64,000 nt of DNA, taken from NCBI GenBank assembly GCA_964455625.1, contig CAYVXZ010000002.1:60949-124948 (forward strand). The letters run 5' to 3'. The notes beneath the pieces were generated by a model. It saw only the letters and a list, made by a program, of their open reading frames with translations, ran no database searches and was not told the origin of the DNA. This DNA comes from an uncultured Planctomycetales bacterium (GTDB lineage Bacteria > Planctomycetota > SBBH01). A program made the translations under genes and the position numbers. Below, piece by piece: positions 15,249 through 36,974 of the stretch; within the stretch, counting starts at the first letter, position 1, and every line of letters begins with the position of its first letter.

Positions 15249-17294
15249 TTACAGCGCCGCGCGGGGGGACCGGCGTTTTCCTTTTGGTCCCCTCCGGCGC
15301 CCCTCGACGGACGGGATGAAATCCCCTTTCCAGTCGGGTTTCAGCTTCAGGATCCGGTCGCGGATCTCGGCGGCGTGCTCGAACTGCAGGAGCCGCGCCG
15401 CCTCCATCATCTTCCCTTCCAGCTCGAAGACGAGCTCCCCCGTGGCGTACCCGGTCGGGCTCTCGCGGACCATCGTGCGGGCGTACTCGGCCTGCTCGCG
15501 CTCGATCTCGATGGTCTTCCGGATCTCCTTCCTGATCGTCTGCGGCGTGATCCCGTTCTTCCTGTTGTATTCCGTCTGCGCGGCGCGTCGGCGGGCGGTC
15601 TCGCGGATCGCGAGGTCCATCGACGGGGTGACGCGGTCGGCATACAGGACGACGCGGGCGTTGACGTTCCGGGCGGCGCGGCCGATGGTCTGCACCAGCG
15701 ACGTCTCCGAGCGCAGGAACCCTTCCTTGTCGGCGTCGAGGATGGCGACGAGCGACACCTCGGGAAGGTCGAGTCCCTCACGGAGGAGGTTGACGCCCAC
15801 CGCGCAGTCGATCTTCCCCTTCCGCAGGTCCGTGAGGACGTCCACCCGCTCGAAGGCGTCGAGCTCCGAGTGGAGGTAGCTGACCTTGACCCCCTTTTCC
15901 CGCATGTAGTCCGAGAGCTCCTCGGCGAGCCGCTTCGTGAGGGTGGTCACCAGCGTCCGCTCGCCCGCCTTGACCCGCTCCTTCACGCGCGCGAGGAGGT
16001 CCTCGATCTGTCCCGCGGTCGGCCGGACCTCCACCTCGGGATCGAGAAGCCCCGTCGGGCGGATCAGCTGCTCCACGACGTGGGGGCCGCACCGCTCGCG
16101 CTCGTAGGGGCCGGGTGTGGCCGAGACGAAGATCGCGCGCTTCACGATCGCCTCCCATTCGGGGAAACGCAGGGGGCGGTTGTCGAGCGCGGAGGGGAGC
16201 CGGAACCCGTGCTCGACCAGGGTCTGCTTCCGGGCCCGGTCGCCGTTGAACATTCCGCGGATCTGCGGGACCGTGACGTGCGCCTCGTCCACGACCACGA
16301 GCGCGTCCTCCGGAAAGTAGTCGAAGAGGGTCGCGGGGCGGGCGTCCGGCTCGCGCCCGGCGAGGGGTCGGGAGTAGTTCTCGATCCCCGGGCAGTATCC
16401 CAGCTCCGTCATCAGCTCGCAGTCGTAGCGGGTGCGCGCCTCGATCCGCTGCGCCTCGAGGAGCTTTCCCTGGTCCCGGAAGAAGGTCACGCGCTCCTCC
16501 ATCTCGGCGAGGATCTTCCCGACCGCCGCGGCGAGCTTCTCCTTCGGCATGATGAAATGCTTCGCCGGGTAGAGGGTGACCCCTTGGGCCGCGTGCAGGA
16601 CGTCGCCCGAGACCGGGTGGACCGCCTGCAGGGCGGCGATCCGGTCGTCCTCGACCGTCACGCGCCAGGCGAACTCCTCGTAGGACGGGAAGATCTCGAC
16701 CACGCCCCCCTTGGCACGGAAGGTGGCGCGCTTGAAGTCGATCTCGCCGCGCTCGTACTGGAGCGTCACGAGGCGCCGGAGCAGGTCCTCCCGGACGCAG
16801 GGTGATCCGACCGCCAGGGGAAGGACCATCTGCCGGTAGCTCTCCGGGTCCCCGAGGCTGTAGATGCAGGAGACCGACGCCACCACGATCGTGTCGCGCC
16901 GTTCCATCAGGGCCGAGGTCGCCGCGAGGCGCAGGCGATCCAGGTCCTGGTTGATCGAGGCGTCCTTCTCGATGTAGAGGTCCTTCTGCGGGATGTACGC
17001 CTCCGGCTGGTAGTAGTCGTAGTAGCTGACGAAGTAGTGGACGGCGTTCTCCGGGAAGAACTCCTTGAACTCGCCGTAGAGCTGGGCGGCGAGCGTCTTG
17101 TTGTGCGAGATCACCAGGGTCGGCTTCTGGACGCGCTGGATGACGTTGGCGAGGGTGAACGTCTTTCCGGAGCCGGTGACGCCCAGGAGCGTCTGGAACG
17201 GGACCCCGGTCTCGAGCCCCCTCACCAGCTTCTCGATCGCCTGGGGCTGGTCGCCGCGCGGGACATAAGGGGCGTGGAGCTTGAAAGGGGCCAT
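15249..17294 (-). CDS. uvrB: excinuclease ABC subunit B UvrB
   Basis: 681 aa. GVTGSGKTFT Walker A, YYDYYQPEAY, and helicase motifs. C-terminal UvrB/UvrC interaction region. Confidence 0.9.
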   Translation of the reverse strand: MAPFKLHAPYVPRGDQPQAIEKLVRGLETGVPFQTLLGVTGSGKTFTLANVIQRVQKPTLVISHNKTLAAQLYGEFKEFFPENAVHYFVSYYDYYQPEAYIPQKDLYIEKDASINQDLDRLRLAATSALMERRDTIVVASVSCIYSLGDPESYRQMVLPLAVGSPCVREDLLRRLVTLQYERGEIDFKRATFRAKGGVVEIFPSYEEFAWRVTVEDDRIAALQAVHPVSGDVLHAAQGVTLYPAKHFIMPKEKLAAAVGKILAEMEERVTFFRDQGKLLEAQRIEARTRYDCELMTELGYCPGIENYSRPLAGREPDARPATLFDYFPEDALVVVDEAHVTVPQIRGMFNGDRARKQTLVEHGFRLPSALDNRPLRFPEWEAIVKRAIFVSATPGPYERERCGPHVVEQLIRPTGLLDPEVEVRPTAGQIEDLLARVKERVKAGERTLVTTLTKRLAEELSDYMREKGVKVSYLHSELDAFERVDVLTDLRKGKIDCAVGVNLLREGLDLPEVSLVAILDADKEGFLRSETSLVQTIGRAARNVNARVVLYADRVTPSMDLAIRETARRRAAQTEYNRKNGITPQTIRKEIRKTIEIEREQAEYARTMVRESPTGYATGELVFELEGKMMEAARLLQFEHAAEIRDRILKLKPDWKGDFIPSVEGRRRGPKGKRRSPRAAL

Positions 17295-20083: not shown

Positions 20084-23000
20084 ATGCCGGAACGCGCCCG
20101 CCGGGGGGTCGTGCTGGTGCTGGTCACCGGATTGGTCGTCATGATCGGCATGGCCGGGACGGTCCTTCTCCAGGTATCCGCCTTTTCGCGGATCCGGGTG
20201 AAATCGGCCGTCCTGTCCGCGGAGGCGCGCCTCGCCGCCGGAGCAGGACTCGAATACGCCGTCGGGAGACTCTGGCGGGATTCCCTGGCGATCTCTGATC
20301 GCGGTCTCGCCATGACGGCCGCGAACCGCCGGGACGACTGGACCTCGCGCGGGAACGCCTCTCCGGCGACGCCCCCGTCCCGGCTTCACAACCCGTCGTA
20401 TGCGCGGGGTGAGCCCTGGATCGACGTGGCCCCGGGGGACGGGATCTACGCGCCGGGAACGGACGGCCCCTCCCCGGGGGGGGATCTGGACGGCGACGGG
20501 CATCTGGACGTCGCGAGCGGCCGGTTGCGCGGCTCACCCTCGAGCCTGTTCTTCCTCCGGATCCGGCCGGCCGGCGCCGGCGTCTGCATCAACAGCGGGG
20601 AGCTGGGGGCCCTGACGGGGGACCATGACCTCGACGGTGTCCTGAATGCGGACGATACCTCGGCATCCGCCACGAGCGGTCCTTACCGGACCGACCTCGA
20701 CGGCGCGTACGGGGATCATGACGGGGACGGCCTGGCGAACGGCGACGATCCCGATTTCCCGGGCCCCTTGGGGAACGGCGTCCCGGACTGGCGCGACCCG
20801 GCGTTCATCGGGAACCGGCATCTGGTGAACCTCCTCGACAACCTGGGGGCGATCCTGGACCTCTCCGTCAAGCAGACGGGTGTTCCCTACAGCGCGCTTC
20901 CCGGCCACGGGGCGCTCGGGACGGTCGAGACCTCCACGCTGGGGATCCTCGTGGTGGCGAACCGCCCGCGCGGTGGGTACGGCGCGGTGGAGGACCTGAA
21001 GCCGTTCCTGTCTCCGGCCGACCATGCGCGGGTCGCGCCGTTCCTCTGCACGCAGGCGCGGATCGTTCCGGTCCCGTTCCCGGTCGACGAGCCGTGGAAC
21101 AAGGACAGCGGCTACGCCAGGCTGATCGCCTCCCCCGAATCGCGCCACGAGTTCCACGCCCTCGTCGATTTCAACGGCGCGCCGGAGGAGGTGCTGGCCG
21201 CCACCCTGCGGCACCTCTGCGCCTCCGGGTCGTCTGACGGGATGATCACCTTCGTCGATCCGGCGCCCCCCACCACGCAGTTCATCCGGATCGGCGGGGC
21301 GGAGGGGGACGCGATCGCGAACAGGCTGGCCCAGGCGCGTCCCTTGCATGCCTGGAAGGATTTTTTGACGGCGTTGCATGTCTCGGCAGCGTCCGCCTTC
21401 GAGGACGATCCTTTCACCCGGACCACCGCGGGCGGGCTCCCGGTGGACGAGGGGACCGACCCGGCCCTGAAGCGCCGCAAGGAGGACCTGATCCTCGCGC
21501 AGGCGATGCCCGGGGGGTATTTCGCCGATCCGCACGCGTGGCGCGCCAATTCGCTCGAGGTCCCGCGCGAGGCGGCGTTTCCCCCTGTCGGGATCGACGC
21601 GACCGACCCGCGGCGCCTCTCCAAGGAATACATGGCCGGTCCGGTGAACACCTTCCCGTTCGACGGGGCGGGGAACGGGATCCTGGACCTGTGGAACGGC
21701 CTCCAGGACCTGCCGGCCCGGATCACGACGGAGTATTCGCTCGCCCCCTGTCGTGAGGCGTTCCGGGTCGAGTCGGAGGGGAGCGCCGGGGAAGGGCGCG
21801 CCCTGGCGTCGGCGGACGGGGAGATCTCCCTGGCCGCCGGATCCCTCGAGCTTTCCGGACAGCAGGTCTTCGAGATGCGTTCCACGGTGGAGCGTCCGGT
21901 CTCGCCGGCCTTTCCCTGGCGCCTGTCCGGCGGCCACGCGCGCGTCGAGGCGGCGGCTCCCGGAGGGGCGGGCGCCTGCACCGTCCCGAAGTCCGACATG
22001 GACTGCTACCACTACACCGGGTTCGGCGCCCCCCAGCCCTGGATGGTCCGGAACGACCGGTACCCGCGCGCGACGGGCGGCGTGACCCTCGAGCCGGTGC
22101 GACTCCCGAAGGACGCGCTCTCGGTCGATCCCCTGACGGGAAACGCCTGCCTTTTCGGCATCCCGTTCAATCCGGACCGTTTCTCGGTGCCCGGCGTCCC
22201 CGAGGCGGGGACCTGGTACGCCACTCCGAACGTACGTCAATGGCAGGACAACCTGGGGGATCCGCTTCTCGATCCGGTGACGGGAAGCCGCCGGAGCCCC
22301 GACCCGACGGGATTTTTGAGCCTGGTCAGTCCGGCCACGACATCGCTTCCGCCGCTCCTGCATACCGGGCTCTCGTTCGGCCCCTCGGGGCCGCGGTTCG
22401 ACCATTCCCCTGTCCTCTGCACGGGGTTCGTCTGGGACGGCGTGACGAACGTCCTGCCGCCGACCCTGGTGTCCCCCGCCGGCCGCCTCCGCGACGTCAC
22501 CGTCGCGTTCTGGTACCCCGCCGGCCGCCAGGAGACGCTGGGAGGACAGGGGGGGACACCGCTTGCCACCAAGGTCGCCCTGCAATACCTGAACGCCGGA
22601 TTCTTCTCGGACATCCTCCTGGTTGACCTGGCGAACGAGGGGCCGAAGGTCTCCGGGCTCCTGCCGCCCCAGTATCCTGCCGTCTGGTGGCTGGCGGATC
22701 CCGCCCTCGCGCAGGCCGGATGGCACCACATCGCCTTCACCTTCGACGCGGCGGGAGACAACGTTTCCTTGAGGGTGGAGGGGGTGGACGCCGGCACCTT
22801 CGCGGTTTCCGCTCCGGGATCGGTGCCGTCTGTCTTCCGGCTGGCGATGACAGGACCGGTCGACGACCTGCGCGTCTTCCACCCGGGGCTTTCGGGCCCC
22901 GCGATCGAGGCGCTGACGCGGGAACCCCGATATCCCCTGTCCGGGAACTTCACGACGCCGCGGTTCCGCCTGGATCCCGTCCGGTTCCCGTCGGGAGTGG

Positions 23001-23341
23001 CCGTCCGGGGACTCTCCTGGGACGGGTTCATCCCCGCGCAGACCGGGGGGACCTTTTCGTTCACCGTGAGCGGGTATGACGCTTCCGGGGCCCTGATCGG
23101 GACGACGCCGGCGACCCCGCCATGGGGAGGCGGCACTCCCCCCCTGGCGCCGGCGAGCCTCGCCGGATGCTCCGCGATCGAGGCGACGCTTTTCCTGCAG
23201 GCCGCTCCGGCGATGCTCCCCCTGAATCCGCCCGGGCCGGGCGGCGGCGGGGTGCCGGTCCTGCGCGACACGCCCGAGATCCGGTCGGTGACCCTGTTCT
23301 ACGGCGACCGGCCCCGCTGGTCGTCGCTATCGTTCCGCTGA
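20084..23341 (+). CDS. giant secreted protein with PilX_N-like (type IV pilus minor-pilin-associated) N-terminal domain, paralog A
   Basis: 1085 aa. N-terminus RRGVVLVLVTGLVVMIGMAGTVLLQVS matches the PilX N-terminal hydrophobic helix. Shares NPSYARGEPW, VNLLDxLGAxL and ARPRGGYxxVEDLKPxL blocks with the 29082..32432 paralog. Asp/Gly-rich DxDGDG repeats. Confidence 0.6.
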   Translation: MPERARRGVVLVLVTGLVVMIGMAGTVLLQVSAFSRIRVKSAVLSAEARLAAGAGLEYAVGRLWRDSLAISDRGLAMTAANRRDDWTSRGNASPATPPSRLHNPSYARGEPWIDVAPGDGIYAPGTDGPSPGGDLDGDGHLDVASGRLRGSPSSLFFLRIRPAGAGVCINSGELGALTGDHDLDGVLNADDTSASATSGPYRTDLDGAYGDHDGDGLANGDDPDFPGPLGNGVPDWRDPAFIGNRHLVNLLDNLGAILDLSVKQTGVPYSALPGHGALGTVETSTLGILVVANRPRGGYGAVEDLKPFLSPADHARVAPFLCTQARIVPVPFPVDEPWNKDSGYARLIASPESRHEFHALVDFNGAPEEVLAATLRHLCASGSSDGMITFVDPAPPTTQFIRIGGAEGDAIANRLAQARPLHAWKDFLTALHVSAASAFEDDPFTRTTAGGLPVDEGTDPALKRRKEDLILAQAMPGGYFADPHAWRANSLEVPREAAFPPVGIDATDPRRLSKEYMAGPVNTFPFDGAGNGILDLWNGLQDLPARITTEYSLAPCREAFRVESEGSAGEGRALASADGEISLAAGSLELSGQQVFEMRSTVERPVSPAFPWRLSGGHARVEAAAPGGAGACTVPKSDMDCYHYTGFGAPQPWMVRNDRYPRATGGVTLEPVRLPKDALSVDPLTGNACLFGIPFNPDRFSVPGVPEAGTWYATPNVRQWQDNLGDPLLDPVTGSRRSPDPTGFLSLVSPATTSLPPLLHTGLSFGPSGPRFDHSPVLCTGFVWDGVTNVLPPTLVSPAGRLRDVTVAFWYPAGRQETLGGQGGTPLATKVALQYLNAGFFSDILLVDLANEGPKVSGLLPPQYPAVWWLADPALAQAGWHHIAFTFDAAGDNVSLRVEGVDAGTFAVSAPGSVPSVFRLAMTGPVDDLRVFHPGLSGPAIEALTREPRYPLSGNFTTPRFRLDPVRFPSGVAVRGLSWDGFIPAQTGGTFSFTVSGYDASGALIGTTPATPPWGGGTPPLAPASLAGCSAIEATLFLQAAPAMLPLNPPGPGGGGVPVLRDTPEIRSVTLFYGDRPRWSSLSFR

Positions 23342-24511
23342 AGCGTTTCGCGCGCCTGCCGGAAGTCCGGCGAGGGGGTCCGCGAGCCGTCCGGCCAGCT
23401 TCCCGAACGTCCCGCCGAAGCGCGCCAGGAGCGCCGCCCCGTCTCCCGCGGAAGCGGGGGACGAGACCGTTTCCAGCACCACCCGCACGCACCCCAGATA
23501 GTCGGCCAGGTGGATCCGCTCGGGGGCGATCCGGCCCCGCGGGCTCATGTTGTGGTAGTTGATCAGGGGAAGCGCCATCGCGCCGGAGCGAAATCCCGAG
23601 AGGGTGAAGGCGCTCGCCTCGCATCCGCCCCCCGTCATGAGGGCGCGCTGGAACCTGAATTTCCTGTCGCGTGCGGAAATGCGCTCCGCCGCCGACGTGA
23701 GCGCGAGCGTGATCTCCGGGTCGAACGTCATGATCCGGTCGCCGGTCCGCACGATCGGCCCCGCGCCGGCCGCCACGCCCGGGACGCGGCAGGAGCTCGC
23801 CTCCACGTTGACGATCCGGGCGTTTCGCGGGATCAATCCCGACCGGACCGCGCCCAGGGCCCCGATGAATCCCGCCTCCTCGCCGCGCGTGAGGAGCGCC
23901 ATCACCGTCGCGGAAGACCGCGCGCGCGCCGCGGCCGAGACCACGGAGGCGGCGACGGCGCATCCGGCCAGGTCGTCGATCGATTTCGACGAGACGATCC
24001 CGCCGTCGAGGGAATACGGGACCAGGTCCCACGAGCCGAAATCCCCCCGGGAAACGGGGCGGGGAAGGTCGAGCCGCATCGTCGTCACGCGTTTCGTCTG
24101 CGGGTCGAGCGCGATTCCCGTCACGCGCCCCCGGACCTGGCCGTCCGGCGTGTAGACGACGACGCGGGCGTCCCGGAAGAAGTCGGGCCGGACCCCGCCC
24201 GTCCACTGGGCGCTCGCTTTCCATCGGGCGCTCGCTTGCGCTCGCTTGGCGCCGGTGGTTTTGCGGGCAGGTGTGCAGTCGAGGATCGTGAATCCCGGAT
24301 GGTCCAGGTGCCCGGTCACGACCCACGGCCTGCCGCGCCCCGTCCCCTTCCAGGTGACCAGGAGATTGCCGTGTGCGTCCCGCTTCAGGCGGAGGCGGCG
24401 CGCGCGTGAAAACGCCTCGACCTTCGCCATGAGCCGGTGCTCGTGGAAGGGGGCGGTGGGTGTCGCGATGAAGTCGGCGAGGATCCGGGAGGCTTCCTGG
24501 ACGTCCATCAT
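23327..24511 (-). CDS. M42-type (FrvX-like) metallo-aminopeptidase
   Basis: Trimmed from the 1070-aa GC-artifact ORF to ATG at 24511 (MMDVQEAS). VVTGHLDHPGF, DDLAGCAVAASVV and TRGEEAGFIGA resemble the M42/M20 metal-binding blocks. Confidence 0.6.
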   Translation of the reverse strand: MMDVQEASRILADFIATPTAPFHEHRLMAKVEAFSRARRLRLKRDAHGNLLVTWKGTGRGRPWVVTGHLDHPGFTILDCTPARKTTGAKRAQASARWKASAQWTGGVRPDFFRDARVVVYTPDGQVRGRVTGIALDPQTKRVTTMRLDLPRPVSRGDFGSWDLVPYSLDGGIVSSKSIDDLAGCAVAASVVSAAARARSSATVMALLTRGEEAGFIGALGAVRSGLIPRNARIVNVEASSCRVPGVAAGAGPIVRTGDRIMTFDPEITLALTSAAERISARDRKFRFQRALMTGGGCEASAFTLSGFRSGAMALPLINYHNMSPRGRIAPERIHLADYLGCVRVVLETVSSPASAGDGAALLARFGGTFGKLAGRLADPLAGLPAGARNASAER

Positions 24512-24531
24512 GAACGGGGCAGGGTATCGGA

Positions 24532-26757
<2,226 letters not shown>

Positions 26758-26807
26758 GACCAGATGGTGCGGGACGTAGCGAGATCATTCAATGAATTTT
26801 GAATGGA

Positions 26808-26846
26808 CAGGAAATGAAAACCCCCGGCGCCGAGCGGCGCCGGGGG
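26808..26846 (-). terminator. rho-independent terminator (minus strand)
   Basis: CCCCCGGCGCC-gagc-GGCGCCGGGGG perfect 11-bp stem. On the minus strand it is followed by UUUUCAUUUC. About 50 bp downstream of the serpin-like gene stop. Confidence 0.6.
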
Positions 26847-26899
26847 AGGGATTCCCGCGCGCGGGAGCCTGTCGGCTCGACTTGTCCCTGCCGCTCTCC

Positions 26900-28003
26900 T
26901 TATCTTTTCTCGATCGGCGCGAGAAGATCGGCGTTGTCGACCCACAGGGCGAAATACGGCCGCTTCGCGTCGGCGTGCCGGATCATCACCAGGAACGGCT
27001 TGTCGAAGATCAGGTCCCGGCCCATGCCCTGGAGGATGAGCACTGCCTCTGACTTCAAGAGCGCTCCGCTCTCGTCCAGGCGAAAGCGGATCTTCTGCAG
27101 GGCGGTGTCGATGGTCATGCCGCCGAGAGGGCCTTTCCCGGCGCGAAGCGGCCTTCCGGTCAGTTCCGCGTAGTCGCGGAGGATGTCGAAATCCAGCACC
27201 GGTACGGCCAGCGTGCCGGATTCGGCCATCGCTACCGGTTTCGCCTCCTCCACGCGCTTCAGGACCGATTCGACGGTCTCCCGCAGCGTCGCCCGCGGGG
27301 GGACCTTCGCGAGGAAGAGGCGGTGCGCCTCGCGTTGCGTCTCCAGCTCGACGATGAAGTCGCCATCGTTCCGGCGGTCGAAGACGCGGACCTGCCGGGC
27401 GGCCCTGGCCTCGGTCTCCTGTTCTACCAGGTACTGGTAGATGCCGAACGATTCCACGTCCGCGCCCGCGAAACCGAGTGTCATCTCGTCGCGAAGGCGC
27501 GTGAAGGGGGACGCGAACGGCAGGTCAGCCAAGAGAGAGGAGTAGGCGATCACGCCGTTCCCGGCCGGACTTTCGCCGGACAACAGTTCGGGCGCCTCGG
27601 TTTCGCCGAATCGGGCTTCCAGCCGATTCCGGATCCGTCCAAGGATCCCGTCCCGGCCGAGTCCCGCCATCGAGACATGCGTCGCGTCGTCCAGGTCGTC
27701 CCGCGTCGCCCCCTTCCGGTTGAGGGCTCCGACCATGGGGTCCTCGTTCTCCATCAGGACCTCCCCTTGGGCCAAGTCGCACAGCTCGTTCCAGGCCACC
27801 TGGAACGAGGCGCACCAGAGGACGTTGGTGCCCGGGGCGATCGGCTGTTCCAGGTGCGGCGTCACGACCGTGCTCTGGAGCCGTGCGGCGTCGCATTGGA
27901 GGCGCGCCTTTCCCCCGGTTTCGGCGCGCTGGCAACCGGAAAGGATCGCCATGGCGCAGGGGATGACCGATCGAATCGCGATCGAACGGAAGGAGGCGGG
28001 CAT
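26900..28003 (-). CDS. serpin-family lipoprotein (putative protease inhibitor)
   Basis: Lipoprotein signal with LSGC lipobox. C-terminal LIFDKPFLVMIRH fits the serpin signature pattern ([LIVMFY]-x-[LIVMFYAC]-[DNQ]-[RKHQS]-[PST]-F-[LIVMFY]-[LIVMFYC]-x-[LIVMFAH]). Length 367 aa. Confidence 0.6.
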   Translation of the reverse strand: MPASFRSIAIRSVIPCAMAILSGCQRAETGGKARLQCDAARLQSTVVTPHLEQPIAPGTNVLWCASFQVAWNELCDLAQGEVLMENEDPMVGALNRKGATRDDLDDATHVSMAGLGRDGILGRIRNRLEARFGETEAPELLSGESPAGNGVIAYSSLLADLPFASPFTRLRDEMTLGFAGADVESFGIYQYLVEQETEARAARQVRVFDRRNDGDFIVELETQREAHRLFLAKVPPRATLRETVESVLKRVEEAKPVAMAESGTLAVPVLDFDILRDYAELTGRPLRAGKGPLGGMTIDTALQKIRFRLDESGALLKSEAVLILQGMGRDLIFDKPFLVMIRHADAKRPYFALWVDNADLLAPIEKR

Positions 28004-28005
28004 TC

Positions 28006-28821
28006 CTATTTACCTCCGCGGCTTTTCCCTTTCCCGTCGCCGCGTCCCTTCCCTTCCTTGCTTCCCTTTTCCTTTCCGGCCTTGCGCTCCTGGTCGAGCT
28101 CGCGCTTCGCCTCCTTTTTCGTGAGGCTGCCGTCCCCGTCGCGATCGGCGCGGTCGAACCGTTTCTCGCCGCCGGCCCTCCGTTCGAGGGGGGTCGCCCC
28201 GTCGCGGGCTTCCTCCTTCGAGAGCAGGCCGTCATCCCCGGCGTGCCGCTCGAACCGGTCCTGGTCGTACCCGCTCGGGTCGGACGGGTCGACGTATCCC
28301 TGTCGCCACTTGCGTTCGGCCTGGTCCCGGCGGTTCGAGCCGTCCTGGTCCGGGTCGCCGGGCGGGGCGGCGGGGGGCAGGGGGAGGCCGGCCGCGGCGC
28401 CGCCTCCGGTCACGGCCGGGCCGCTCGCGGCCCGATGGTTCTTCACACGCTCGTGGATCTCGCGCCGGTGGGCGCGCTCCCACTTCAGGTAGTCGCGGGC
28501 CTCGCCCATCTCCAGGGCCCCGTCGGTCCCGGCCGCGCGGTTCCACCGCTCGCGCCCGCCCGTCTCCTCGCCGGCCAGATGCGCCGCGACCGCCTCGTCC
28601 CAGGTCAGTTTTCCGTCCCCGTTCCTGTCCGCGGCGGTGAACCGCTCCTTGTCGAGCTTCCCGTTCTCGCCGGTGTAGAGCTCCTGCCACCGCCCGACGA
28701 CCTTTTCCCGGGGTGTCCTTCCGTCGTCCGGCGTTCCGTCCGTCCCGTCGTTCCCCAGATCCGCACGGGCCGCCCCGCAGAGGAGTCCCGCCGCCGCCAT
28801 CCAGACCGGTATCCGTTTCAT
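28006..28821 (-). CDS. secreted EF-hand calcium-binding protein
   Basis: Signal peptide MKRIPVWMAAAGLLCGAARA. EF-hand loops DRNGDGKLTWDE, DRDGDGSLTKKE and DDGLLSKEE. Lys/Glu-rich tail. Confidence 0.6.
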   Translation of the reverse strand: MKRIPVWMAAAGLLCGAARADLGNDGTDGTPDDGRTPREKVVGRWQELYTGENGKLDKERFTAADRNGDGKLTWDEAVAAHLAGEETGGRERWNRAAGTDGALEMGEARDYLKWERAHRREIHERVKNHRAASGPAVTGGGAAAGLPLPPAAPPGDPDQDGSNRRDQAERKWRQGYVDPSDPSGYDQDRFERHAGDDGLLSKEEARDGATPLERRAGGEKRFDRADRDGDGSLTKKEAKRELDQERKAGKEKGSKEGKGRGDGKGKSRGGK

Positions 28822-29081
28822 GCGATCTCCTTTCGTCCAGTCGCCAGGCGCCCCGACGGGCGCTCGGGATCAGGAAGCGCAATCCCGGTGCCACGCGGGG
28901 AAGGAGGTGGGGCGACCCAGGATTCTCCTTAATGAGATGAGAATGAGCAGACAATGAGGCATCTTGTTGACTATTCGGACTTTCCGCCGGCCGGTCCCCG
29001 CACCGGACGACGCAACCCGTTCAAAACCGGTGCCGGAGGGGAATCCGCCGGGCGGGAACCCGTTTTGCGGTGCTTTCCGTC

Positions 29082-32000
29082 ATGAAACGAACCGATGCGG
29101 GTATCGCGCTCGTGATGGCGACGGGGCTCGTGACGCTCATGGCGTTCCTGGCGATCCTCGTGGTCCGGGGGGCGCAGGTCGCCTCCTCCTCCCTGGGGGG
29201 GGGCGGGGAGCTGGCGGCGGAGAGCGGCTTGAGTTACGCCGCCGCGCGCCTGGTCGAGGGGGCGCGCCGGGTCCCGCCGTCGGCCGCCAACCGGTGCGAC
29301 GACTGGCGCGCGCGCGGGGCCCACGAGGGGACGCTTCCGGCGGGGCGCCTCGACAACCCGTCCTACGCCCGGGGGGAGCCGTGGGGGGACGACGGGGACG
29401 GCGTGCGGATGCCGGGCGAGGGGGGGGGCGCCTGGCGCGACCTCGACGGGGACGGACGCTTCTCCGCCTGGAGCGGGCGGACGCGGGGGGGCGGGCCGTT
29501 CTCCCGGCGCTTCTCGCTGCGGATCGCGTCGGACGCGGGGCTCGTCCCGGTGAACGCCGGGGAACTGGGGGATCCGCTCGCGGACCATGACGGCGACGGG
29601 GCCGCCAACGCCGACGATCCGGAATACGCGGACCTCCTGGCGGCCGGGGGGGCGCCGTGGGCCTCGGTCGACGTCCCGGCGAACCGCGCGATCGTGAACC
29701 TCCTCGACAGCCTGGGGGCGGTCCTCGGCGTCTCCGGGACGCGCCTCGTCAACCACACGCCGGCGGAGGGGAACTGGCCCGCGACGATGCGGCTGGGGAA
29801 GATCGCGCTGTCGGATCTCGGGACGCGGATCGTCTCGGCCCGGCCGCGGGGCGGGTACGCCTCGGTCGAGGACCTGAAGCCCGTCCTGGGTCAGGCGGAC
29901 TGGGAGAAGGTCCTTCCGTACCTCACCGTCCGGGGATCGCGCGTCCCCCGGGCCGGGGGGGGCGGCGGGTCGTTCTTCGCCGACCTGACGCGTCCTCCGA
30001 ACGTGGCCGCCGACCAGCCCCGGCTCGACCTCGACGAGGCGCCGCTCGCGGCGATCCGGGCGGTGCTCCGGATCATGACGGCGGGCGGGTACTACCACTG
30101 GGATCCGTTGAGCTACGACGCCAGCGACACGGCGCTCTACCAGTCGGTGGCGGTCGAAGGGGGATTCGTCCGCGTCCTGCCGGAGGAGGCGGACCTGATC
30201 GCGGACCTCATCGACCGCGAGCGGCGCGTCCGGCCGATCGCGAGCTGGCGCCGCCTGGCCGAGGTGCTCGGGGGGCTCCCGGCGGCGGTCGCCGACGATC
30301 CGTTCACCGCGGAAGCCGACGGCGAGGAAAGGCGGCGGCTCCTCGAGGACCTGGTCCTCGCGGGGTTCAACGCCAACTTCTACCTGCCGGACCCGTTCTC
30401 CCGGAGCCGGGACACCCTGGAGCTGGCGCGCGAGGCCATCCAGGCCGGACATGACACGCTGCGCCCCCGGCGCGTCGCCTCGGGCGGGATCATGGCCTGG
30501 AGCACCGCCCCGTACACGTCGGCGGGCCAGAGGCCGGCCATCGGGTCGGTCGGGTTCCCGAAGCTCTACGAGCCGATGGACCTGTTCCGGCCGCCGCCGC
30601 CGGATCCGGACCATCCGACGATGGCGCCGCTGAAGGCGCGCCCCGCGGCCCCGTTCGGCCTGTCCGGAGGGGTCCCCCTGTACGCGGTCGAGTCGCAGGC
30701 GGGCGGGCGGGAGGGTTCGCGCGGGACGGCGCGGGGGACTTTTGCCGCGGCGCGCGGCGCGCTGCATCTCACCAGCCAGGAGGATTTCGAGCAGTCGCGG
30801 CCGTCGTCCGCGTCGCCGCGCCGGTACGCCGGAGGCGACATCCTTTCGGCGGGGGACGCCCCGGTCGTCAAGACGGGCGTCCAGAGCCATCCCCGCTTTT
30901 CCCTGTCGGGTTACCGGGCGCAGCCGCTCGTCGACGCCTATCCGCTCCTGACGCCGGCACAGCGCGCGGCGGTCCTCGCGGCGCACGCCTATCCGGACCT
31001 CGCCGGGGACCTGCGCCTCTCGGTCCGGCAGCTCCCCGTGACGGAACTGGCGCAGGCGGATCCCCCGTGCGTCTTCGCGCTTCCGTTCAACGAGGACCAG
31101 GCCCCGTCCGCGGACACGCTCTACTCCGACACCGACTGGAAGGACAATTTCGGCGATCCGGTCCGCCGCGCGGGGGGCGCGCCGTCGCTTCTGCTGGCCT
31201 CCGACCAGGGAGCGCCGTTCGTGATCGAGGAAGGGGGGCGGTTCTCGCCGTGCGGCCCGCGCGCCTTTGCCCGGGTGATGCCGGGGCGGAAGGCGGATTC
31301 GGTCCTGTACGGGTGGAGCCCCTTCTCGGCGCCGTTCCCGCTGACGCGCGGCGACTACCGCGACCCGGACGACCCCTCGAAGGTCGTGGCGCGGGGGGGC
31401 GAGGTCCGGAACGCCACGATCTCGTTCCTTTACCCGTCGCGCGGCGGGGAGGATGTCGTCCCCCAGCACTGGAACGGGACGTTCGTCCTGCGCTACCACC
31501 GCGGGACGGGGACGGGCGCCGGGACCGGCCCCGGCGATTCAGGCGGTTCGGGCGACGCGGGCGGGAAGGGGTCCGGGGGCGCCGTCGCCGGCGGCGGCCT
31601 GGACGGCGGCGGGATGCCCCCTCCGAACGAGGAGGATTCCGACGGCCAGGAGGGGACGGGAAGCGCGTATCCGGTCTATCTCCAGGTCGAATGCATGATG
31701 AACGACGGCCTGATGATCACGCCGGTCGGAGCGACCGGCGCCAGCGGGTCGGCGCTCGTGATGCCGCCGCCGATTTCCGCCGGGTCTCCGCAGCGATGGC
31801 GGCACGTGGCGCTCGTGATCGACGGCGGCACGAACCCGGACGACGGTGACGCGCAGATGCGGATCCACGTGGACGGCGTCGCCACGCTTTCCGTGATCAG
31901 CCTGAAGATGAGCGCGCTCGCGGCCGGGAACCGTCCCCGATCCGACGAGATGCGCCTCGAGATCCTGCAGGGTCCGTTCGATGACCTGAAGTTCTTCGAC

Positions 32001-32432
32001 CGCGCCATGACCCCGGAAGAGGTCACGGTCGAGGCGGCGCGCTCGCTCGTGCGGCACGAGCCGGCGGGGGTCTACCGGTCGGGGCTTTTCACGTTCGATC
32101 CGGACCGGTTTCCGGCGGGGGGGATCCCGGCAGGCGCCTCCTGGGACGCCTTCTCGCCCGCCGCGTGCCGCGCCGGCGGGACGACCCCGCTCGCGTTCGC
32201 CGTCCGCGCCTACGCCGAGGACGGGACGACGCTTCTCGGAGAGGCGCGCTTCGACTGGGACGGGGATCCCGCGACGGCGCAGGAGGCGCTCTTCCGGCTC
32301 CCGCGGTGCCGGCACGTCCGCTGGGAGGCGACGCTCCGGTCGGCGACATCCGCGGACACGCCGGTCCTTGACGAGTTCCGCCTGCTCTACGCGTCCCCCG
32401 GGAACGCCTGGAGCGGCTACGTGGTCGAGTGA
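29082..32432 (+). CDS. giant secreted protein with PilX_N-like N-terminal domain, paralog B
   Basis: About 1116 aa from ATG 29082 (MKRTDAGIALVMATGLVTLMAFLAILVV). Conserved blocks shared with 20084..23341. Gly-rich low-complexity stretch (GTGTGAGTGPGDSGGSGDAGGKGSGG). Confidence 0.6.
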   Translation: MKRTDAGIALVMATGLVTLMAFLAILVVRGAQVASSSLGGGGELAAESGLSYAAARLVEGARRVPPSAANRCDDWRARGAHEGTLPAGRLDNPSYARGEPWGDDGDGVRMPGEGGGAWRDLDGDGRFSAWSGRTRGGGPFSRRFSLRIASDAGLVPVNAGELGDPLADHDGDGAANADDPEYADLLAAGGAPWASVDVPANRAIVNLLDSLGAVLGVSGTRLVNHTPAEGNWPATMRLGKIALSDLGTRIVSARPRGGYASVEDLKPVLGQADWEKVLPYLTVRGSRVPRAGGGGGSFFADLTRPPNVAADQPRLDLDEAPLAAIRAVLRIMTAGGYYHWDPLSYDASDTALYQSVAVEGGFVRVLPEEADLIADLIDRERRVRPIASWRRLAEVLGGLPAAVADDPFTAEADGEERRRLLEDLVLAGFNANFYLPDPFSRSRDTLELAREAIQAGHDTLRPRRVASGGIMAWSTAPYTSAGQRPAIGSVGFPKLYEPMDLFRPPPPDPDHPTMAPLKARPAAPFGLSGGVPLYAVESQAGGREGSRGTARGTFAAARGALHLTSQEDFEQSRPSSASPRRYAGGDILSAGDAPVVKTGVQSHPRFSLSGYRAQPLVDAYPLLTPAQRAAVLAAHAYPDLAGDLRLSVRQLPVTELAQADPPCVFALPFNEDQAPSADTLYSDTDWKDNFGDPVRRAGGAPSLLLASDQGAPFVIEEGGRFSPCGPRAFARVMPGRKADSVLYGWSPFSAPFPLTRGDYRDPDDPSKVVARGGEVRNATISFLYPSRGGEDVVPQHWNGTFVLRYHRGTGTGAGTGPGDSGGSGDAGGKGSGGAVAGGGLDGGGMPPPNEEDSDGQEGTGSAYPVYLQVECMMNDGLMITPVGATGASGSALVMPPPISAGSPQRWRHVALVIDGGTNPDDGDAQMRIHVDGVATLSVISLKMSALAAGNRPRSDEMRLEILQGPFDDLKFFDRAMTPEEVTVEAARSLVRHEPAGVYRSGLFTFDPDRFPAGGIPAGASWDAFSPAACRAGGTTPLAFAVRAYAEDGTTLLGEARFDWDGDPATAQEALFRLPRCRHVRWEATLRSATSADTPVLDEFRLLYASPGNAWSGYVVE

Positions 32433-32450: not shown

Positions 32451-33848
32451 TTACCGGATCGTGACGGGGACTGGCGGGGCGACGGACTCTCCGGTCCATG
32501 CCTTTCCCGTCTCCGTCCCGCCGCCGATCTTCCCCCCGAACAGGCGAGCGAACCCGCTCTCGAGCCGGGCGCCGGAGTATCCCGCGACCAGGCGGTAACG
32601 TCCCGGGGGGACGTCCTGGGGGAGCTCTGCCGTCAGGCGGACCGGTTCCCCCTTTTTCCCGAGGATCCGGGCGGTTCCGCTTCCCGCGTCATGCCGGTAG
32701 GCCTTCATGGCGGCGACCGTCCCGTCCTCGGCCAGCAGGGCCGCCCAGAAACAGAGGCCGGGCGCGCGGCCGGGAGGGAGGTCGAGCCGGATTCCGGGGC
32801 GGTTGTTCTCTCCCGTCAGGACGAGATCGAAGACGAGGGGCGTCCCCGACGCCGTCTCCCGCTCCGCGGGGACCAGTTCCATCTTCAGGCCGCTCTCCTT
32901 CCGGTCGAGCGAAGGGAGCATCCAGGCGGGGCCCGTCTCGGCCTCCGCCAGCAGGCGCTGCACGGGCGGCGTGAATCCGTCCCCGGGGTCCGCATCCGGC
33001 AGTCGGTCCTGGGCGGCGGTCGTGTCGTACCGGACGGCCAGCCGGAACGGGCCGACCCGTGTCGAGGCGTTTCCGGGGAGGGAGACGTCCTGTTCCAGCG
33101 TCTCGCCGGGCGCCAGGCACAGGGAGCGGAAGGTCGGGGCCCCCGGCCCCCTTCCTCCCGCCGCCACGAGGGCCTCCTTCATTATCTGGCCCTTCACGAC
33201 GGCCCCCATCACTTCGGCGTCTCGGGCCGCATCGGCGGGGTCGTCCTCCCACTTGGGGAAGTACTGGAGCGCGTCCGGATCGATCCAGAGGGGAGCCTTT
33301 CCCCCGTTCCTGAAAACCACCCGGAATCCGGACGGCTTCTCGCGGGTGAGGGTCGTCGTTTCGAGGCGGACCGACAGTTCCAGCGCTCCAGGGTCCGCTA
33401 CCCCGTCCGGGAACAGCGCTTCCAGCCTCTTGCGAGCGCCCTTTCCCATCCCGTTCAGGAGGTCGAAGGCCCGCGAGGCGGCCTGCCTGTCCCGCGTCGT
33501 CTCCAGGACGCCGATCAGCCGGTCGATCTCCTCGCGCTGGTCGGCCCGGATCCACGCCATGCCATCCAGCAGTTCCCGCGCGCGCAGGCGGACCTCGGGC
33601 TCGCCGCTTTCCGAGGCGCTCACCAGCGCCCAGGCCGCCTCCGGCCCGATCCCTGCCAGCCGGCGGCCCGCCTCCTCGCGGCGTTCGAGCTCCGGATGGC
33701 CAAGGTTCCTGACGAGGGTCTCGATCTCGGCCCGCAGGGCGGGATCGGCGGGAGGGGAGGGCGTTCCGGAGTCGGCGCTTGCGGGCGCGGAAAGCGCGGG
33801 GAAGGCCAGGCCGCAGGCCAGGATGACGGGAAGCAGACGCATGTGCAA
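32451..33848 (-). CDS. hypothetical secreted protein
   Basis: 465 aa, signal peptide MRLLPVILACGLAFPALSAPASA. No family recognised. Confidence 0.5.
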   Translation of the reverse strand: MHMRLLPVILACGLAFPALSAPASADSGTPSPPADPALRAEIETLVRNLGHPELERREEAGRRLAGIGPEAAWALVSASESGEPEVRLRARELLDGMAWIRADQREEIDRLIGVLETTRDRQAASRAFDLLNGMGKGARKRLEALFPDGVADPGALELSVRLETTTLTREKPSGFRVVFRNGGKAPLWIDPDALQYFPKWEDDPADAARDAEVMGAVVKGQIMKEALVAAGGRGPGAPTFRSLCLAPGETLEQDVSLPGNASTRVGPFRLAVRYDTTAAQDRLPDADPGDGFTPPVQRLLAEAETGPAWMLPSLDRKESGLKMELVPAERETASGTPLVFDLVLTGENNRPGIRLDLPPGRAPGLCFWAALLAEDGTVAAMKAYRHDAGSGTARILGKKGEPVRLTAELPQDVPPGRYRLVAGYSGARLESGFARLFGGKIGGGTETGKAWTGESVAPPVPVTIR

Positions 33849-33984
33849 AAGACCCCCCTTTCGGATCGCCTGTCATCCGGGACGTTCCGCGGCGTTTCCT
33901 TGACTCAATGATTTCGCGGGAAATCCGCGCGTCTCCCGGTGCGTCCGGAGCGGGTACACTGTCGGACAGGTGGGGTCGAACCGG

Positions 33985-35526
33985 ATGGGTGTCACGTTCG
34001 CGCGCATCTCCTTCCTGGCCGGCGTCCTGTTTGCCGGCGGCGCGCGCGGCGATCCGGCGCCGGACGCGGCGATCCGGGACCTTTCCAGCCCTTCCTTCGA
34101 GGAGCGTCAGGCCGCTTCCAGGCGTCTCGCGGCCGAGGCGGCGCGGCTGGAAAAGGCGGGAGACCGGAAGGGGCTTTCCGCCCTGATGAAGACGCTCCGG
34201 GCCTGCGTCGACGACAGCGAGGACCAGGAGGCCCGCGAGGCCGCGCGGCTGATCCTGGCGCCGCTTCTGGCGGGGAATCCGCGCTGGCGGAAACTTCTCG
34301 AGGATCTTCCGGGTCGCGCCGTCCGCGGCATGGCCGTTCCCGAGGGGATCCTGCTCACGAATCTTTCCACCGGCGTGATGACGGACGCCTTCCTGGAAAC
34401 GGACGTCGACGGGACGACCCCGCTCTGGATCGGCCTCTACGATCCGTCGACGGGCGCGCGGATCTGGGAGACGAAACTGGACGCCGGCCAGGTCGGGTTT
34501 TCGGGACTCGACGTTTCGGAGGCGGGGATCCTCGCCTTCGGGAACGACGTCGGGGGGGGGATCACTTTCCAGGTTGCCGGGGAAGCGGGCGTTTTCCGCC
34601 AGGAGTCCGGGACCGGATGGGCCAGGCTTCTCGACCGGAAGACCGGGCGCACCCTGTGGGAGGCGGCCCCGAAGATGCTCGGAGCCGGCATCGTCGGGGC
34701 GTTCGTTTCCGGAAAGAGGATCGTGCTTCACGGCCTGGACGCCAAGGGGGGCGGGCGCGTCTGGTGCCTGGATCTCGCCGGCGACCCCTCCAAGCCGCTC
34801 TGGTCGATCGGGTTCAAGTCGCCCCCGACGGTCCGGCTGGCCCCCGCGGACTGGCTGGGCGAGCCGGCCGTTTTCGTCGCGACCCCCGGTCAGATCGGGG
34901 TCTGGCGCCTGGCGGACGGCCGGGAGGCCTGGAGCCGGAAGGGGGAGGCGACCTGCCATGTCTTCGAGACGGTCCCGGGCGGGATCGTCCTTGCGGGGTA
35001 TCCGGGCGCGTCTCCGGGCGGCGCGTTTTTCGGGGCGTTGGACGGATCCGGGGAGAAGGAGTTCCTGCGGCTGGTCTCCGGGAAGACGGGCGAGACGGTC
35101 TGGGAAAAGAAACCCCCTCCCGGGCACGTGTTTGCGGCCGCCCCCCTGGAAGGGGGCGTCTGGGCGGGCGGGGACGCGGAGGGAAACCTCGAGGGTCCCT
35201 GGTGGATGGGGCTCTACGACGCGGCGACGGGAAAACCCCGCTGGGAGATCACGGGGGTGCATTTTCCCGACGGGAACGTCCCGATCCCGCACGTCTCGCC
35301 GCAGGGAATCCTGGTGGGAGGAAAGGCGCCTCCCTTCGGCGGGATGGTGGCGCCCGGCTTCTCCCTGACCTTCTACGCCGCGGCCACCGGAAAGGTCGTC
35401 TGGAAGCGGGTCCTCGAATGGGTCGACACCGACGTCACCGGGATCGAGACCGTGTCCGGAGGGGTCCTTGTCTTCGCGCCGGCGGGCGTCTCGTTCGTCC
35501 GTCTCGCGGACGCCGACACCGAATAG
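33985..35526 (+). CDS. secreted PQQ-like beta-propeller repeat protein (BamB-like fold)
   Basis: Signal peptide MGVTFARISFLAGVLFAGGARG. Repeated G(x)xxW(E/K)xK/ GxV(W) units (ARIWETK, RTLWEAAP, GREAWSRK, GETVWEKK, GKPRWEITG, GKVVWKRV). Confidence 0.55.
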   Translation: MGVTFARISFLAGVLFAGGARGDPAPDAAIRDLSSPSFEERQAASRRLAAEAARLEKAGDRKGLSALMKTLRACVDDSEDQEAREAARLILAPLLAGNPRWRKLLEDLPGRAVRGMAVPEGILLTNLSTGVMTDAFLETDVDGTTPLWIGLYDPSTGARIWETKLDAGQVGFSGLDVSEAGILAFGNDVGGGITFQVAGEAGVFRQESGTGWARLLDRKTGRTLWEAAPKMLGAGIVGAFVSGKRIVLHGLDAKGGGRVWCLDLAGDPSKPLWSIGFKSPPTVRLAPADWLGEPAVFVATPGQIGVWRLADGREAWSRKGEATCHVFETVPGGIVLAGYPGASPGGAFFGALDGSGEKEFLRLVSGKTGETVWEKKPPPGHVFAAAPLEGGVWAGGDAEGNLEGPWWMGLYDAATGKPRWEITGVHFPDGNVPIPHVSPQGILVGGKAPPFGGMVAPGFSLTFYAAATGKVVWKRVLEWVDTDVTGIETVSGGVLVFAPAGVSFVRLADADTE

Positions 35527-35714
35527 AGCCCACATTCCCGGACAGCCTCTAAATCGCATTTTCCGGAAGATGGGCGTCGAATAGGCATGAAATGATCTGC
35601 TGATCATTCGGATCCGGCGCAGTCGCCTCTCCGGGCCTCGCTGGAGCCGGCTCGCACGCTTTTTGCTCGTCTACTCTCGCAATGCATTTCCGGAAAACGC
35701 ACAGGAGGGGATTC

Positions 35715-36974
35715 ATGATGATGACGACAAGGACTGTCCTGAAGGCCGTTCTTTTCGCGGGCGTGGTCTTTTGCGCGCACGCCGATCCGTTCCTGCGCAT
35801 TCTCGAGAATCCCTGGGGCCCGATGGGATCGGGGCAGTTCGGGATGAGCGTCGCGGGAGGCGGGGACTGGGACGCCGACGGCTATCCGGATCTGGTCGTC
35901 GGGTCTCCGAAATACGTGCCCCCGCAATATGGCAGCGTGTCCGTGTTCTCGGGGAGGACGGGGAAGTCCATGGATTCGTGGGTCAGCTCTGTCGGGATCA
36001 ACTACGGGAAGGGTTTCGGCGCCTCTGTGGCGCATGCGGGGGACCTTGACGGCGACGGTCTCGGTGACGTCATCGTGGGTTCCTTGACGGCGATTTCCGC
36101 CTTCAACGGAGACGGTTTTCTGTGGATGCAGACCCGCCCGGATCCCGGCGTGTTGATCCCCGTCGTCGTGGCCTCGCTCGGGGACGTGGACGGCGACGGC
36201 CGGCCGGACGTCGCGATGGGGGACAGCCAGTTCGACGGATCCGCCGGCGCCCTGGCCGGGCGCGTGGCGGTCTATTCGGGGGCGACGGGCGCCTTCATCC
36301 GGAACATCGAAGGGGAGACCCCTTATTCGTACCTGGGGACCTCGGTCTGCGGCGCCGGCGACGTGAACGGAGACGGCGTCCCGGATATCGCGGCCGGCGG
36401 AGCGGGGTACCAGCAGAACGTGGGACGTACGTATCTTTTTTCAGGCGCCAGCGGGAGCCTTTTGCGCGCCTACGATGCCGCCCCGGGCGACATGGACATG
36501 GGGCGCGCCGTGGCGAACGCCGGGGACGCGACCGGGGACGGGATCCCGGATCTTCTCGTCAGCTCGATGCAGACGAACAGCTATCCGATCGGGAGGGGGA
36601 GGGTGTCCTTGTTCTCGGGGGCGGACGGGACGCGGGTCTGGTCGCAGGTGGGCCCCCAGGTCGCCGATCTCTTCGGGAGCAGCATTGCCGCGACCGGGGA
36701 CGTGAACGGCGACGGGAAGGGGGATTTCCTGGTGGGGGCGCCGCAACTCCAGCCGCAGCCCGACAAGAAAGGGAAGGCATACCTCTACTCCGGGGCACCG
36801 GGCCGCGCCTTGCTGCGTGAGGAGACCGGCCAGCAGTTCCAGGACGGGTTCGGGACGTCTGTCTGCGGGGCGGGCGACCTGGACGGGAACGGCCGGGCCG
36901 AGGTGGCCATCGGCGCTCCGTTTTTCTCGGGATCGGCCGGCGGTGGCGGGCGCGTTTACGTGGGAGGGGAGTAG
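35715..36974 (+). CDS. secreted FG-GAP repeat (integrin-alpha-like beta-propeller) protein
   Basis: AGGAGGGG then ATGATGATG at 35715. Seven or more FG-GAP / DxDGDG units (GDWDADGYPDLVVG, GDLDGDGLGDVIVG, GDVDGDGRPDVAMG, GDVNGDGVPDIAAG, GDATGDGIPDLLV, GDVNGDGKGDFLVG, GDLDGNGRAEVAIG). Confidence 0.7.
   Translation: MMMTTRTVLKAVLFAGVVFCAHADPFLRILENPWGPMGSGQFGMSVAGGGDWDADGYPDLVVGSPKYVPPQYGSVSVFSGRTGKSMDSWVSSVGINYGKGFGASVAHAGDLDGDGLGDVIVGSLTAISAFNGDGFLWMQTRPDPGVLIPVVVASLGDVDGDGRPDVAMGDSQFDGSAGALAGRVAVYSGATGAFIRNIEGETPYSYLGTSVCGAGDVNGDGVPDIAAGGAGYQQNVGRTYLFSGASGSLLRAYDAAPGDMDMGRAVANAGDATGDGIPDLLVSSMQTNSYPIGRGRVSLFSGADGTRVWSQVGPQVADLFGSSIAATGDVNGDGKGDFLVGAPQLQPQPDKKGKAYLYSGAPGRALLREETGQQFQDGFGTSVCGAGDLDGNGRAEVAIGAPFFSGSAGGGGRVYVGGE

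Follow-up and report, generated by a model that had tools for sequence, protein, structure and literature searches.

Two giant paralogous proteins with a GspK-like module and a lectin-like head, candidate modular minor pilins of a planctomycete-like bacterium

A stretch of 64,000 nucleotides from an uncultured Planctomycetales bacterium (assembly GCA_964455625.1, contig CAYVXZ010000002.1, positions 60,949 to 124,948), hereafter the window, encodes two very large paralogous proteins, named here P1 and P2. Both combine an N-terminal module resembling GspK of type II secretion with a lectin-like C-terminal head. What a type IV pilus or a secretion pseudopilus binds or moves is decided by the minor pilins at its tip. 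The GspK and PilX proteins known so far are small and are encoded by a single gene within an operon. Here the GspK module has about twice its usual size and is joined to a lectin-like head that varies, and the family has multiplied per genome, lies scattered away from the machinery genes, and has no name in Pfam, NCBIfam, or the source annotations.

The two open reading frames (ORFs) of about 1100 codons picked out by a first-pass annotation of this DNA exist. P1 has 1085 residues, and an NCBI contig of 321,535 bp encodes a database protein with exactly this sequence. P2 has 1116 residues when read from the ATG at 29082, which is also the start of its database protein, or 1120 from a GTG at 29070. 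Their G+C at the third codon position is 0.88 and 0.92, respectively, and in both genes the first position is richer in G+C than the second, which is the pattern expected of coding DNA. The G+C content of the window is about 70%, and long spurious ORFs are therefore frequent. Long minus-strand ORFs lying antisense within P1 and P2 (e.g., 20534-22882 and 28971-31499) were dismissed as artefacts of this composition because their codon-position G+C is not coding-like.

P1 and P2 are, as judged from their sequences, true paralogs with homology well past the N-terminus. They can be aligned over nearly their entire length (BLASTP, 30% identity in 877 columns, E 5e-68), and a second BLASTP segment joins their C-terminal parts at 28% identity. 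A tblastn search of the 64 kb found P1 and P2 only. The blocks NPSYARGEPW, VNLLDxLGA, and RPRGGYxxVEDLKPxL, which had been quoted as shared by the pair, are present in both and fall in columns that vary little or not at all in an alignment of 55 family members.

The relatives in this alignment came from a word-indexed search of 5.8 billion proteins, which returned 55 sequences of about 950-1,220 aa, all singletons and all unnamed. An exhaustive profile search of 1.84 billion cluster representatives, the clusters being drawn at 50% identity, gave 198 matches at E <= 1e-30, 1,214 at E <= 1e-10, and 7,292 at E <= 1e-3. Among the 150 listed of the 198 representatives, nearly all measure 900-1,220 aa and most were matched over most of their length. 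Many of the weaker matches, toward E 1e-3, are presumed to be LamG-only or GspK-only. For the 10 members checked, neither a name nor an accession was found in any source, no significant Pfam match was obtained in 10 distant members, and NCBIfam gave no match. Eight family proteins, P1 and P2 included, are found on contig records of 321,535 bp, which were taken as one contig. Among genomes sampled at one per species, a single family locus was detected, labelled 'MAG: Planctomycetales bacterium', and two scans of JGI metagenomes found no member. Tandem copies also occur, three in one related locus (L002) and two in each of two others (L001 and L011). Conservation drops from the N-terminus to the C-terminus. 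Mean pairwise identity is 47% over aa 66-330 and 26% in the LamG region, which is the most variable part of the family and also holds most of the large insertions, while the GspK-like part is the best conserved.

The N-terminus follows a common design in 139 of 164 family members: a leader ending in Gly, mostly basic and short (usually 6-13 residues), is followed by the motif [IV][AV]L[VI]L[VA][SA]G[LI]. Most of the other 25 look like mis-called starts. The Gly, residue 8 in P1, is conserved in at least 90% of the family. Position +5 is occupied by Leu in 99 of the 139 motif-bearing members and by Glu in none; GspK itself also lacks Glu5. In the AlphaFold2 (AF2) model of P1, residues 3-65 form a single continuous helix, alpha1, which is hydrophobic in its first third. 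The N-terminal consensus of a 32-sequence GspK alignment, QRG-VALL.VLL, shows the same pattern, and hhalign matched the family profile to the profile of these 32 sequences with 96.2% probability (E 2.1e-9), positions 6-72 falling on 6-72. The matched span is the entire alpha1 helix, in register. The 32-sequence profile was needed for this result, as one E. coli GspK sequence gave a weak match of 18% probability.

The first-pass annotation had described these N-termini as belonging to the PilX_N type (PF14341). The kinship of the helix with the PilX/GspK kind was borne out, and membership of PilX_N itself had to be rejected. With the hidden Markov model of PilX_N, neither P1 nor P2 gave a match at E <= 1, and 46 family members searched at E <= 0.1 gave none either; the family consensus scored 9.5 bits where the cutoff is 25.5 (E 1.3), in an alignment that covers the whole model and is not significant. 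An ordinary signal peptide, the other outcome considered at that stage, was not seen. What is present is a short leader, a conserved Gly at position -1, and a hydrophobic alpha1 without Glu5 in the register of GspK, so that, at the level of sequence, an N-terminus of the PilX/GspK kind holds.

The resemblance to GspK is predicted to extend far beyond this helix. The full-length AF2 model of P1, built with the family alignment, has a predicted local distance difference test (pLDDT) value of 88.7 and a predicted template modelling score (pTM) of 0.91; aa 1-600 modelled alone reach 89.1 and 0.89. The only strong structural matches of the aa 1-600 model are the two GspK structures, XcpX (5vtm_X; score 13.4, 208 of 259 residues, 3.1 A, 23% identity) and GspK (3ci0_K; score 13.2, 222 of 280 residues, 3.4 A, 16% identity). 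Residues 1 to about 600 are therefore predicted to adopt a GspK-type fold, including its helix-hairpin-helix elements. Sequence comparison gives weak support that agrees with the model. The RPRGGY..VEDL block falls on the second helix-hairpin-helix of GspK (hhalign, 50% probability, E 1.6e-4), and a relaxed hhalign run (mact 0.05) of the family against the GspK profile gave 92% over 256 columns. T2SSK (PF03934) matches 15 of 46 members at E <= 0.1, the best at E 1.7e-5 and most of them below threshold.

Asp-rich motifs of the DxDxDG type are found at aa 134-222 of P1 and aa 120-179 of P2. They lie between the conserved blocks and within the GspK-like module, and D180, D184, G185, and D191 of P1 are nearly invariant in the family. 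Two Ca2+ sites have been described in GspK and three in XcpX (PMC6211770), and it is plausible that the Asp-rich loops of P1 and P2 likewise bind Ca2+. These proteins had earlier been thought to carry long Asp/Gly-rich, Ca-binding extensions after the conserved blocks, a view that has to be given up. The C-terminal 500 aa are predicted by AF2 as folded beta-rich domains, and the sole long Gly/Asp-rich stretch is a low-complexity insertion at aa 808-861 of P2 (nt 31503-31664), located within the LamG module and not conserved in the family.

The LamG assignment draws on several comparisons. Pfam Laminin_G_3 matches aa 902-981 of P2 (E 2.5e-5). Searched against the PDB by sequence, a single-sequence query returned noise and a profile query returned LamG matches alone; Foldseek with the full P1 model likewise gave LamG-type matches alone. 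The profile match together with the predicted jelly-roll fold places this module in the LamG/ConA-like lectin superfamily (PF13385). Foldseek matches to tandem galectins, extending over about 340 columns, suggest two adjacent beta-sandwiches in the C-terminal part. Residues 951-1085 of P1, which have a homologous counterpart in P2, form an all-beta domain in the model of P1, confidently modelled and without a fold-family match. The region of aa 601-790 in P1 is also confidently modelled; it gave no separate fold match, and part of it may belong to the jelly roll. In the models, the C-terminal 450 residues or so are shown as a LamG/ConA-like jelly roll followed by a second beta-sandwich. The features of both genes and the neighbours that recur near other family members are collected in Table 1.

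Table 1. Positions in the window of the P1 and P2 genes, of their predicted modules, and of recurrent neighbouring genes
Feature	Position	Strand	Basis
P1 gene, candidate giant GspK-like modular pilin (database protein P0001)	20084..23341	+	1085-aa ORF and translation
P1 aa 1-65: leader MPERARRG, then helix alpha1 with hydrophobic N-terminal half VVLVLVTGLVVMIGMAGTVLL	20084..20278	+	model, conservation, hhalign
P1 aa 1-600: predicted GspK-like pilin module, about 2x the size of GspK	20084..21883	+	
P1 aa 134-222: three DxDxDG-type Asp-rich loops (DLDGDGHLD, DHDLDGVLNADD, DHDGDGLANGDD), putative Ca2+ sites	20483..20749	+	motif positions
P1 aa 248-322: helix-hairpin-helix-like block VNLLDNLGA...RPRGGYGAVEDLKPFL...VAPFL	20825..21049	+	
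P1 aa 601-790: connecting region of loops and short strands, conserved PFNxD block	21884..22453	+	secondary structure, pLDDT, conserved columns
P1 aa ~791-950: predicted LamG/ConA-like jelly-roll (lectin-like) module	22454..22933	+	
P1 aa 951-1085: predicted C-terminal beta-sandwich, conserved SPRFxFD...WDGFIP...LRDTP blocks	22934..23338	+	all-beta, pLDDT >90
P2 gene, paralog of P1 (database protein P0053)	29082..32432	+	1116 aa from ATG
P2 aa 1-570: leader MKRTDAG, alpha1, and GspK-like module up to conserved SQEDFE block	29082..30791	+	alignment to P1, motifs, sub-threshold T2SSK
P2 aa ~778-972: LamG-like module with Gly/Asp-rich insertion	31413..31997	+	Pfam Laminin_G_3, motif positions
P2 aa ~999-1116: C-terminal beta-sandwich homologous to that of P1	32076..32429	+	second BLASTP segment, conserved blocks
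HEAT-repeat protein, recurrent neighbour	13851-15236		
Protein with HEAT-like N-terminus, recurrent neighbour	32451-33848	-	
Protein with HEAT-like N-terminus and PQQ-type beta-propeller, recurrent neighbour	33970-35526	+	
FG-GAP propeller protein, recurrent neighbour	35682-36974	+	

An architecture made of a GspK-like module and a lectin-like head is unusual and is solidly supported by these results. The family that shows it is unannotated and restricted to one lineage, and its members are regarded as candidate modular pilins of giant size in the GspK class, distantly homologous to GspK and expected to work like it. With GspK and XcpX (3CI0 chain K and 5VTM chain X; PF03934 and PF21687) the family shares the basic leader, the Gly, the hydrophobic helix without Glu5, the register of alpha1, and a helix-hairpin-helix block of the RP.GGY..v..L type. 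The conserved Asp-rich motifs found here may be counterparts of the Ca2+ sites of GspK and XcpX (PMC6211770). In contrast to GspK, P1 and P2 are about 3.3 times longer, with a GspK-like module of about 600 aa instead of about 330, and they carry a LamG domain and a further beta-sandwich; they do not reach the Pfam gathering score. Whereas one GspK is present per system, many paralogs occur per genome here, with eight on one contig, and P1 and P2 lie outside any gsp operon, without gspI or gspJ beside them, unlike the gspG-H-I-J-K order of E. coli.

In type IVa pili, the minor pilin PilX is considered to correspond to GspK of type II secretion, and a role as tip or adhesin therefore fits P1 and P2. 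PilX, encoded in the fimU-pilVWXY1E cluster of Pseudomonas and Myxococcus, belongs to the same role class, being the equivalent of GspK at the pilus tip, and has a similar N-terminal helix without Glu5. It differs from P1 and P2 in its size (about 150-200 aa against 1085 and 1116 aa) and in its setting, as no pilin-like genes accompany the present proteins, either in the window or in the related loci (about 153 kb). Moreover, the PilX system uses a separate large adhesin, PilY1, whereas an adhesin-like head is part of the same polypeptide here.

The interpretation favoured here, with somewhat better than even confidence, is that P1 and P2 belong to the GspK/PilX class as giant minor pilins of modular build, and that they cap type IV filaments as tips with lectin-like heads. 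They would probably act as interchangeable adhesive tips. According to this proposal, prepilin peptidase would cleave the leader after the conserved Gly, the putative site in P1 being after Gly8. The GspK-like module would then be located, as in GspK and PilX, at the very tip of a type IV filament, either a pilus or a secretion pseudopilus, and small partner pilins encoded elsewhere would probably accompany the giant subunit. Ca2+ on the Asp-rich loops would stabilise the GspK-like module. The lectin-like head would be displayed outward and bind a surface ligand, most likely a glycan. Different paralogs might provide different tips for the same filament, and some copies might be switched on by their own pair of extracytoplasmic function (ECF) sigma and anti-sigma factors.

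Another reading takes P1 and P2 as cap subunits of a secretion system and not as adhesins. They might be true GspK orthologs, capping a type II secretion-like system encoded elsewhere, with the variable LamG head selecting or pushing different secreted cargo or gating the secretin, and not binding ligands outside the cell. The closest fold and the only sequence signal are indeed those of GspK/T2SSK and not of PilX_N, and the GspK-I-J tip of type II secretion is thought to contact cargo and secretin (PMC6211770). However, GspK is a single operon-encoded protein, whereas at least eight paralogs with hypervariable heads are found per genome in this family, scattered among housekeeping genes, and the LamG-bearing pilins that have been characterised are adhesins (PMC9934059). 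This role as a secretion cap is considered quite improbable, although present data cannot separate it from that of an adhesive tip.

Several observations count against the proposal of filament-capping tips. Assembly into a filament is proposed from the architecture, and the gene contexts lend it no support. The genomic contexts comprised about ten loci with family members (numbered between L001 and L012), about 153 kb in total, plus the window. No pseudopilin, secretin, platform protein, or prepilin peptidase lies beside family members in these sequences. The sole related gene is that of a PilT/GspE-like ATPase at 7222-8346 (-), 12 kb upstream of P1 and beside an unrelated transporter. N_methyl (PF07963), the class III signature IPR012902, is absent from all 46 scanned members. 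T2SSK has no match in P1 and stays below threshold in P2 (aa 248-273, E 0.004, 17.8 bits against a cutoff of 24.2), and T2SSK_1st (PF21687) matches none of the 46 members, whereas true GspKs carry both PF03934 and PF21687. The support for the fold comes from predicted structures and not from solved ones, and the binding of Ca2+ and of glycans is proposed from motifs and fold only. Finally, a subunit of 1,100 residues would have to pass through a secretin or find a place outside it, and to our knowledge nothing this large has been shown to do so in a diderm.

The same contexts bear on a further possibility, namely that the N-terminus is an uncleaved signal anchor. P1 and P2 would then be periplasmic or surface lectin-like proteins or sensors anchored in the inner membrane, their GspK-like fold would be a relic of their evolution, and the proteins might feed information to nearby ECF sigma/anti-sigma pairs. 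Pilus and secretion genes are absent beside every copy; homologs of E. coli GspC, D, F, G, H, I, J, L, M, and O were not found near any of them, and the canonical prepilin motif (G-F/M-T-L-I-E) is absent from every frame of the window. An ECF sigma factor and a FecR/zf-HC2 anti-sigma factor are encoded directly upstream of a family member in L012 (3-1592), where the anti-sigma gene overlaps the family gene by 11 nt, and an ECF sigma/FecR anti-sigma pair lies about 2 kb upstream of another member in L005 (2325-4224). These pairs also give hints of copy-specific regulation, which would suit interchangeable tips. The absence of the N_methyl signature and of Glu5 agrees with an anchor as well, but the latter equally holds for GspK. 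Moreover, a plain anchor would need neither a conserved Gly nor a continuous helix of about 60 residues, and the leader-Gly-hydrophobic design is conserved in register with GspK, together with a strongly conserved pilin module. An anchored protein is thus judged unlikely. If P1 and P2 are not assembled into filaments, they would represent a pilin fold reused as a membrane-anchored receptor.

Tip pilins of modular design are already known as a principle; what would be new here is the giant GspK-class version. Pilins with grafted lectin or vWA modules have been described (PMC8179133, PMC9934059). In Streptococcus sanguinis, PilC joins a pilin module to a ConA/LamG-like lectin module (PDB 7OA7) and PilB joins a pilin module to vWA. 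As in the modular pilins of Raynaud et al. (2021), the extra module of P1 and P2 is grafted after the pilin module. In those proteins the pilin module is small and canonical and carries the IPR012902/N_methyl signature, whereas here it is GspK-like and the signature is absent. The survey relied on this signature, and its largest case has 860 residues (PMC8179133). Families like that of P1 and P2, which lack N_methyl, would have escaped it. With 950-1,200 aa and a diderm planctomycete-like lineage, they differ from the surveyed proteins in size and in host. CofB and TcpB, large minor pilins located at the tip of type IVb pili, have beta-rich, lectin-like modules behind the pilin module and start the assembly of the filament (PMC6048534, PMC5207764). 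In the Kil (Tad) pilus of Myxococcus xanthus, one filament can be fitted with several alternative tip sets, whose exposed domains vary (PMC12075869). The Kil 'Tip' complexes belong to the Tad/Flp filament class and are made of several proteins, in contrast to the single giant polypeptides found here.

A bolder version of the filament-tip proposal can be advanced tentatively, as doubtful on balance. The tip pilin (GspK/PilX) and a tip adhesin with a role of the PilY1 type may have been merged in one polypeptide of about 1,100 residues, and this polypeptide may have been expanded to at least eight interchangeable tips per genome, with distinct lectin-like heads and in some cases an ECF switch. 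If so, one type IV filament machine could be re-armed for different polysaccharides or surfaces, and the family would offer a molecular handle on the fibre-based binding and uptake of complex glycans by planctomycetes. Filament capping as such, if true, would extend the size limit of pilin subunits and provide candidates for substrate capture in a deep-branching, poorly studied planctomycete-like group.

Between P1 and P2, and on the strand opposite to both, lie genes for an M42 peptidase, a sigma-54 activator with tetratricopeptide repeats (TPR), a serpin-like protein, and an EF-hand protein. The first-pass annotation had named these neighbours along with the PilT-like ATPase and a PilZ gene, and all of them were recovered except that the serpin assignment is weak (E 0.007, 16 bits against a cutoff of 27). 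It had further proposed that P1 and P2 are oversized PilX-family adhesins with Ca-binding C-terminal extensions, forming a regulated surface or proteolysis-control module with the four intervening genes. The N-terminus of the PilX/GspK kind accords with this idea, as does a perfect sigma-54 promoter consensus before the EF-hand gene, beside the sigma-54 activator. Nevertheless, none of the four intervening genes has a homolog in about 130 kb around family members elsewhere, and their orientation, the sub-threshold serpin, the missing PilX_N match, the position of the Asp-rich motifs inside the N-terminal module, and the folded beta domains of the C-terminal half all speak against it. Such a module is very improbable.

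The sigma-54 site in question, at 28879-28893 (-), is the only zero-mismatch consensus of the window (TGGCACCGGGATTGC) and precedes the ATG of the EF-hand gene (28006-28821, -) by about 58 bp. The EF-hand gene is followed on that strand by the weak serpin-like gene and, after it, by the gene for the TPR/sigma-54 activator, and the three genes may constitute a small sigma-54 regulon of their own. A candidate sigma-54 promoter before P2 was rejected, its site having two mismatches and occurring at chance level. P1 and the M42 gene are convergent and share 15 bp at their 3' ends (23327-23341). The M42 frame runs upstream into a spurious ORF of 1070 aa, and its true start, at about 24499, was taken from the Pfam match.

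Other neighbours do recur. Four of the 44 window genes tested for recurrence near family members were positive (loci L005, L007, L009, L010, and L011), and these are the HEAT, PQQ-type, and FG-GAP genes of Table 1. Secreted proteins with a HEAT-like N-terminus and propellers of the PQQ and FG-GAP types are encoded within a few kb of family members at several loci. Their association with the family is tentative because such families may simply be abundant in the lineage.

Further genes of possible relevance were noted in the related loci. A 541-aa protein encoded in L009 (3942-5567) and also in L010 (5938-7563) has no Pfam match, starts with a hydrophobic helix like that of PilX/TadG (MEKRSEAGSVYAMVLMLAGTLGLAALAAATL...), and may be a further pilin-like component. 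Its gene in L009 is part of a same-strand run upstream of the family member, together with a weak PilZ match, two genes upstream of that member, and HEAT proteins. Just downstream of the second copy in L011, a 198-aa soluble protein is encoded (21252-21848), whose precomputed T2SSF_N match was not reproduced at E <= 0.1. In the window, a secreted protein with a retropepsin-like aspartyl protease domain and HEAT repeats (39108-40268, +) is followed by the PilZ-domain gene (40393-40974, +), and downstream of the latter lies a second FG-GAP-like coding region (41200-42309, +), seen only by tblastn with the FG-GAP protein of L011.

Across the 64 kb, no tRNA genes or Rfam families were found at threshold. 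UvrB, encoded at 15249-17294 (-), has no relative above 65% identity among the 5.8 billion proteins; its best named relatives, from Pirellulales, Thermogutta, and other Planctomycetota, are only 62-65% identical, and the host lineage is therefore regarded as planctomycete-like and poorly sampled. Topoisomerase VI is uncommon in bacteria. A gene for its subunit A (TP6A_N/Topo_VI_alpha) was observed on a related bacterial contig (L003, 13146-15755), where the adjacent gene is cut by the contig end.

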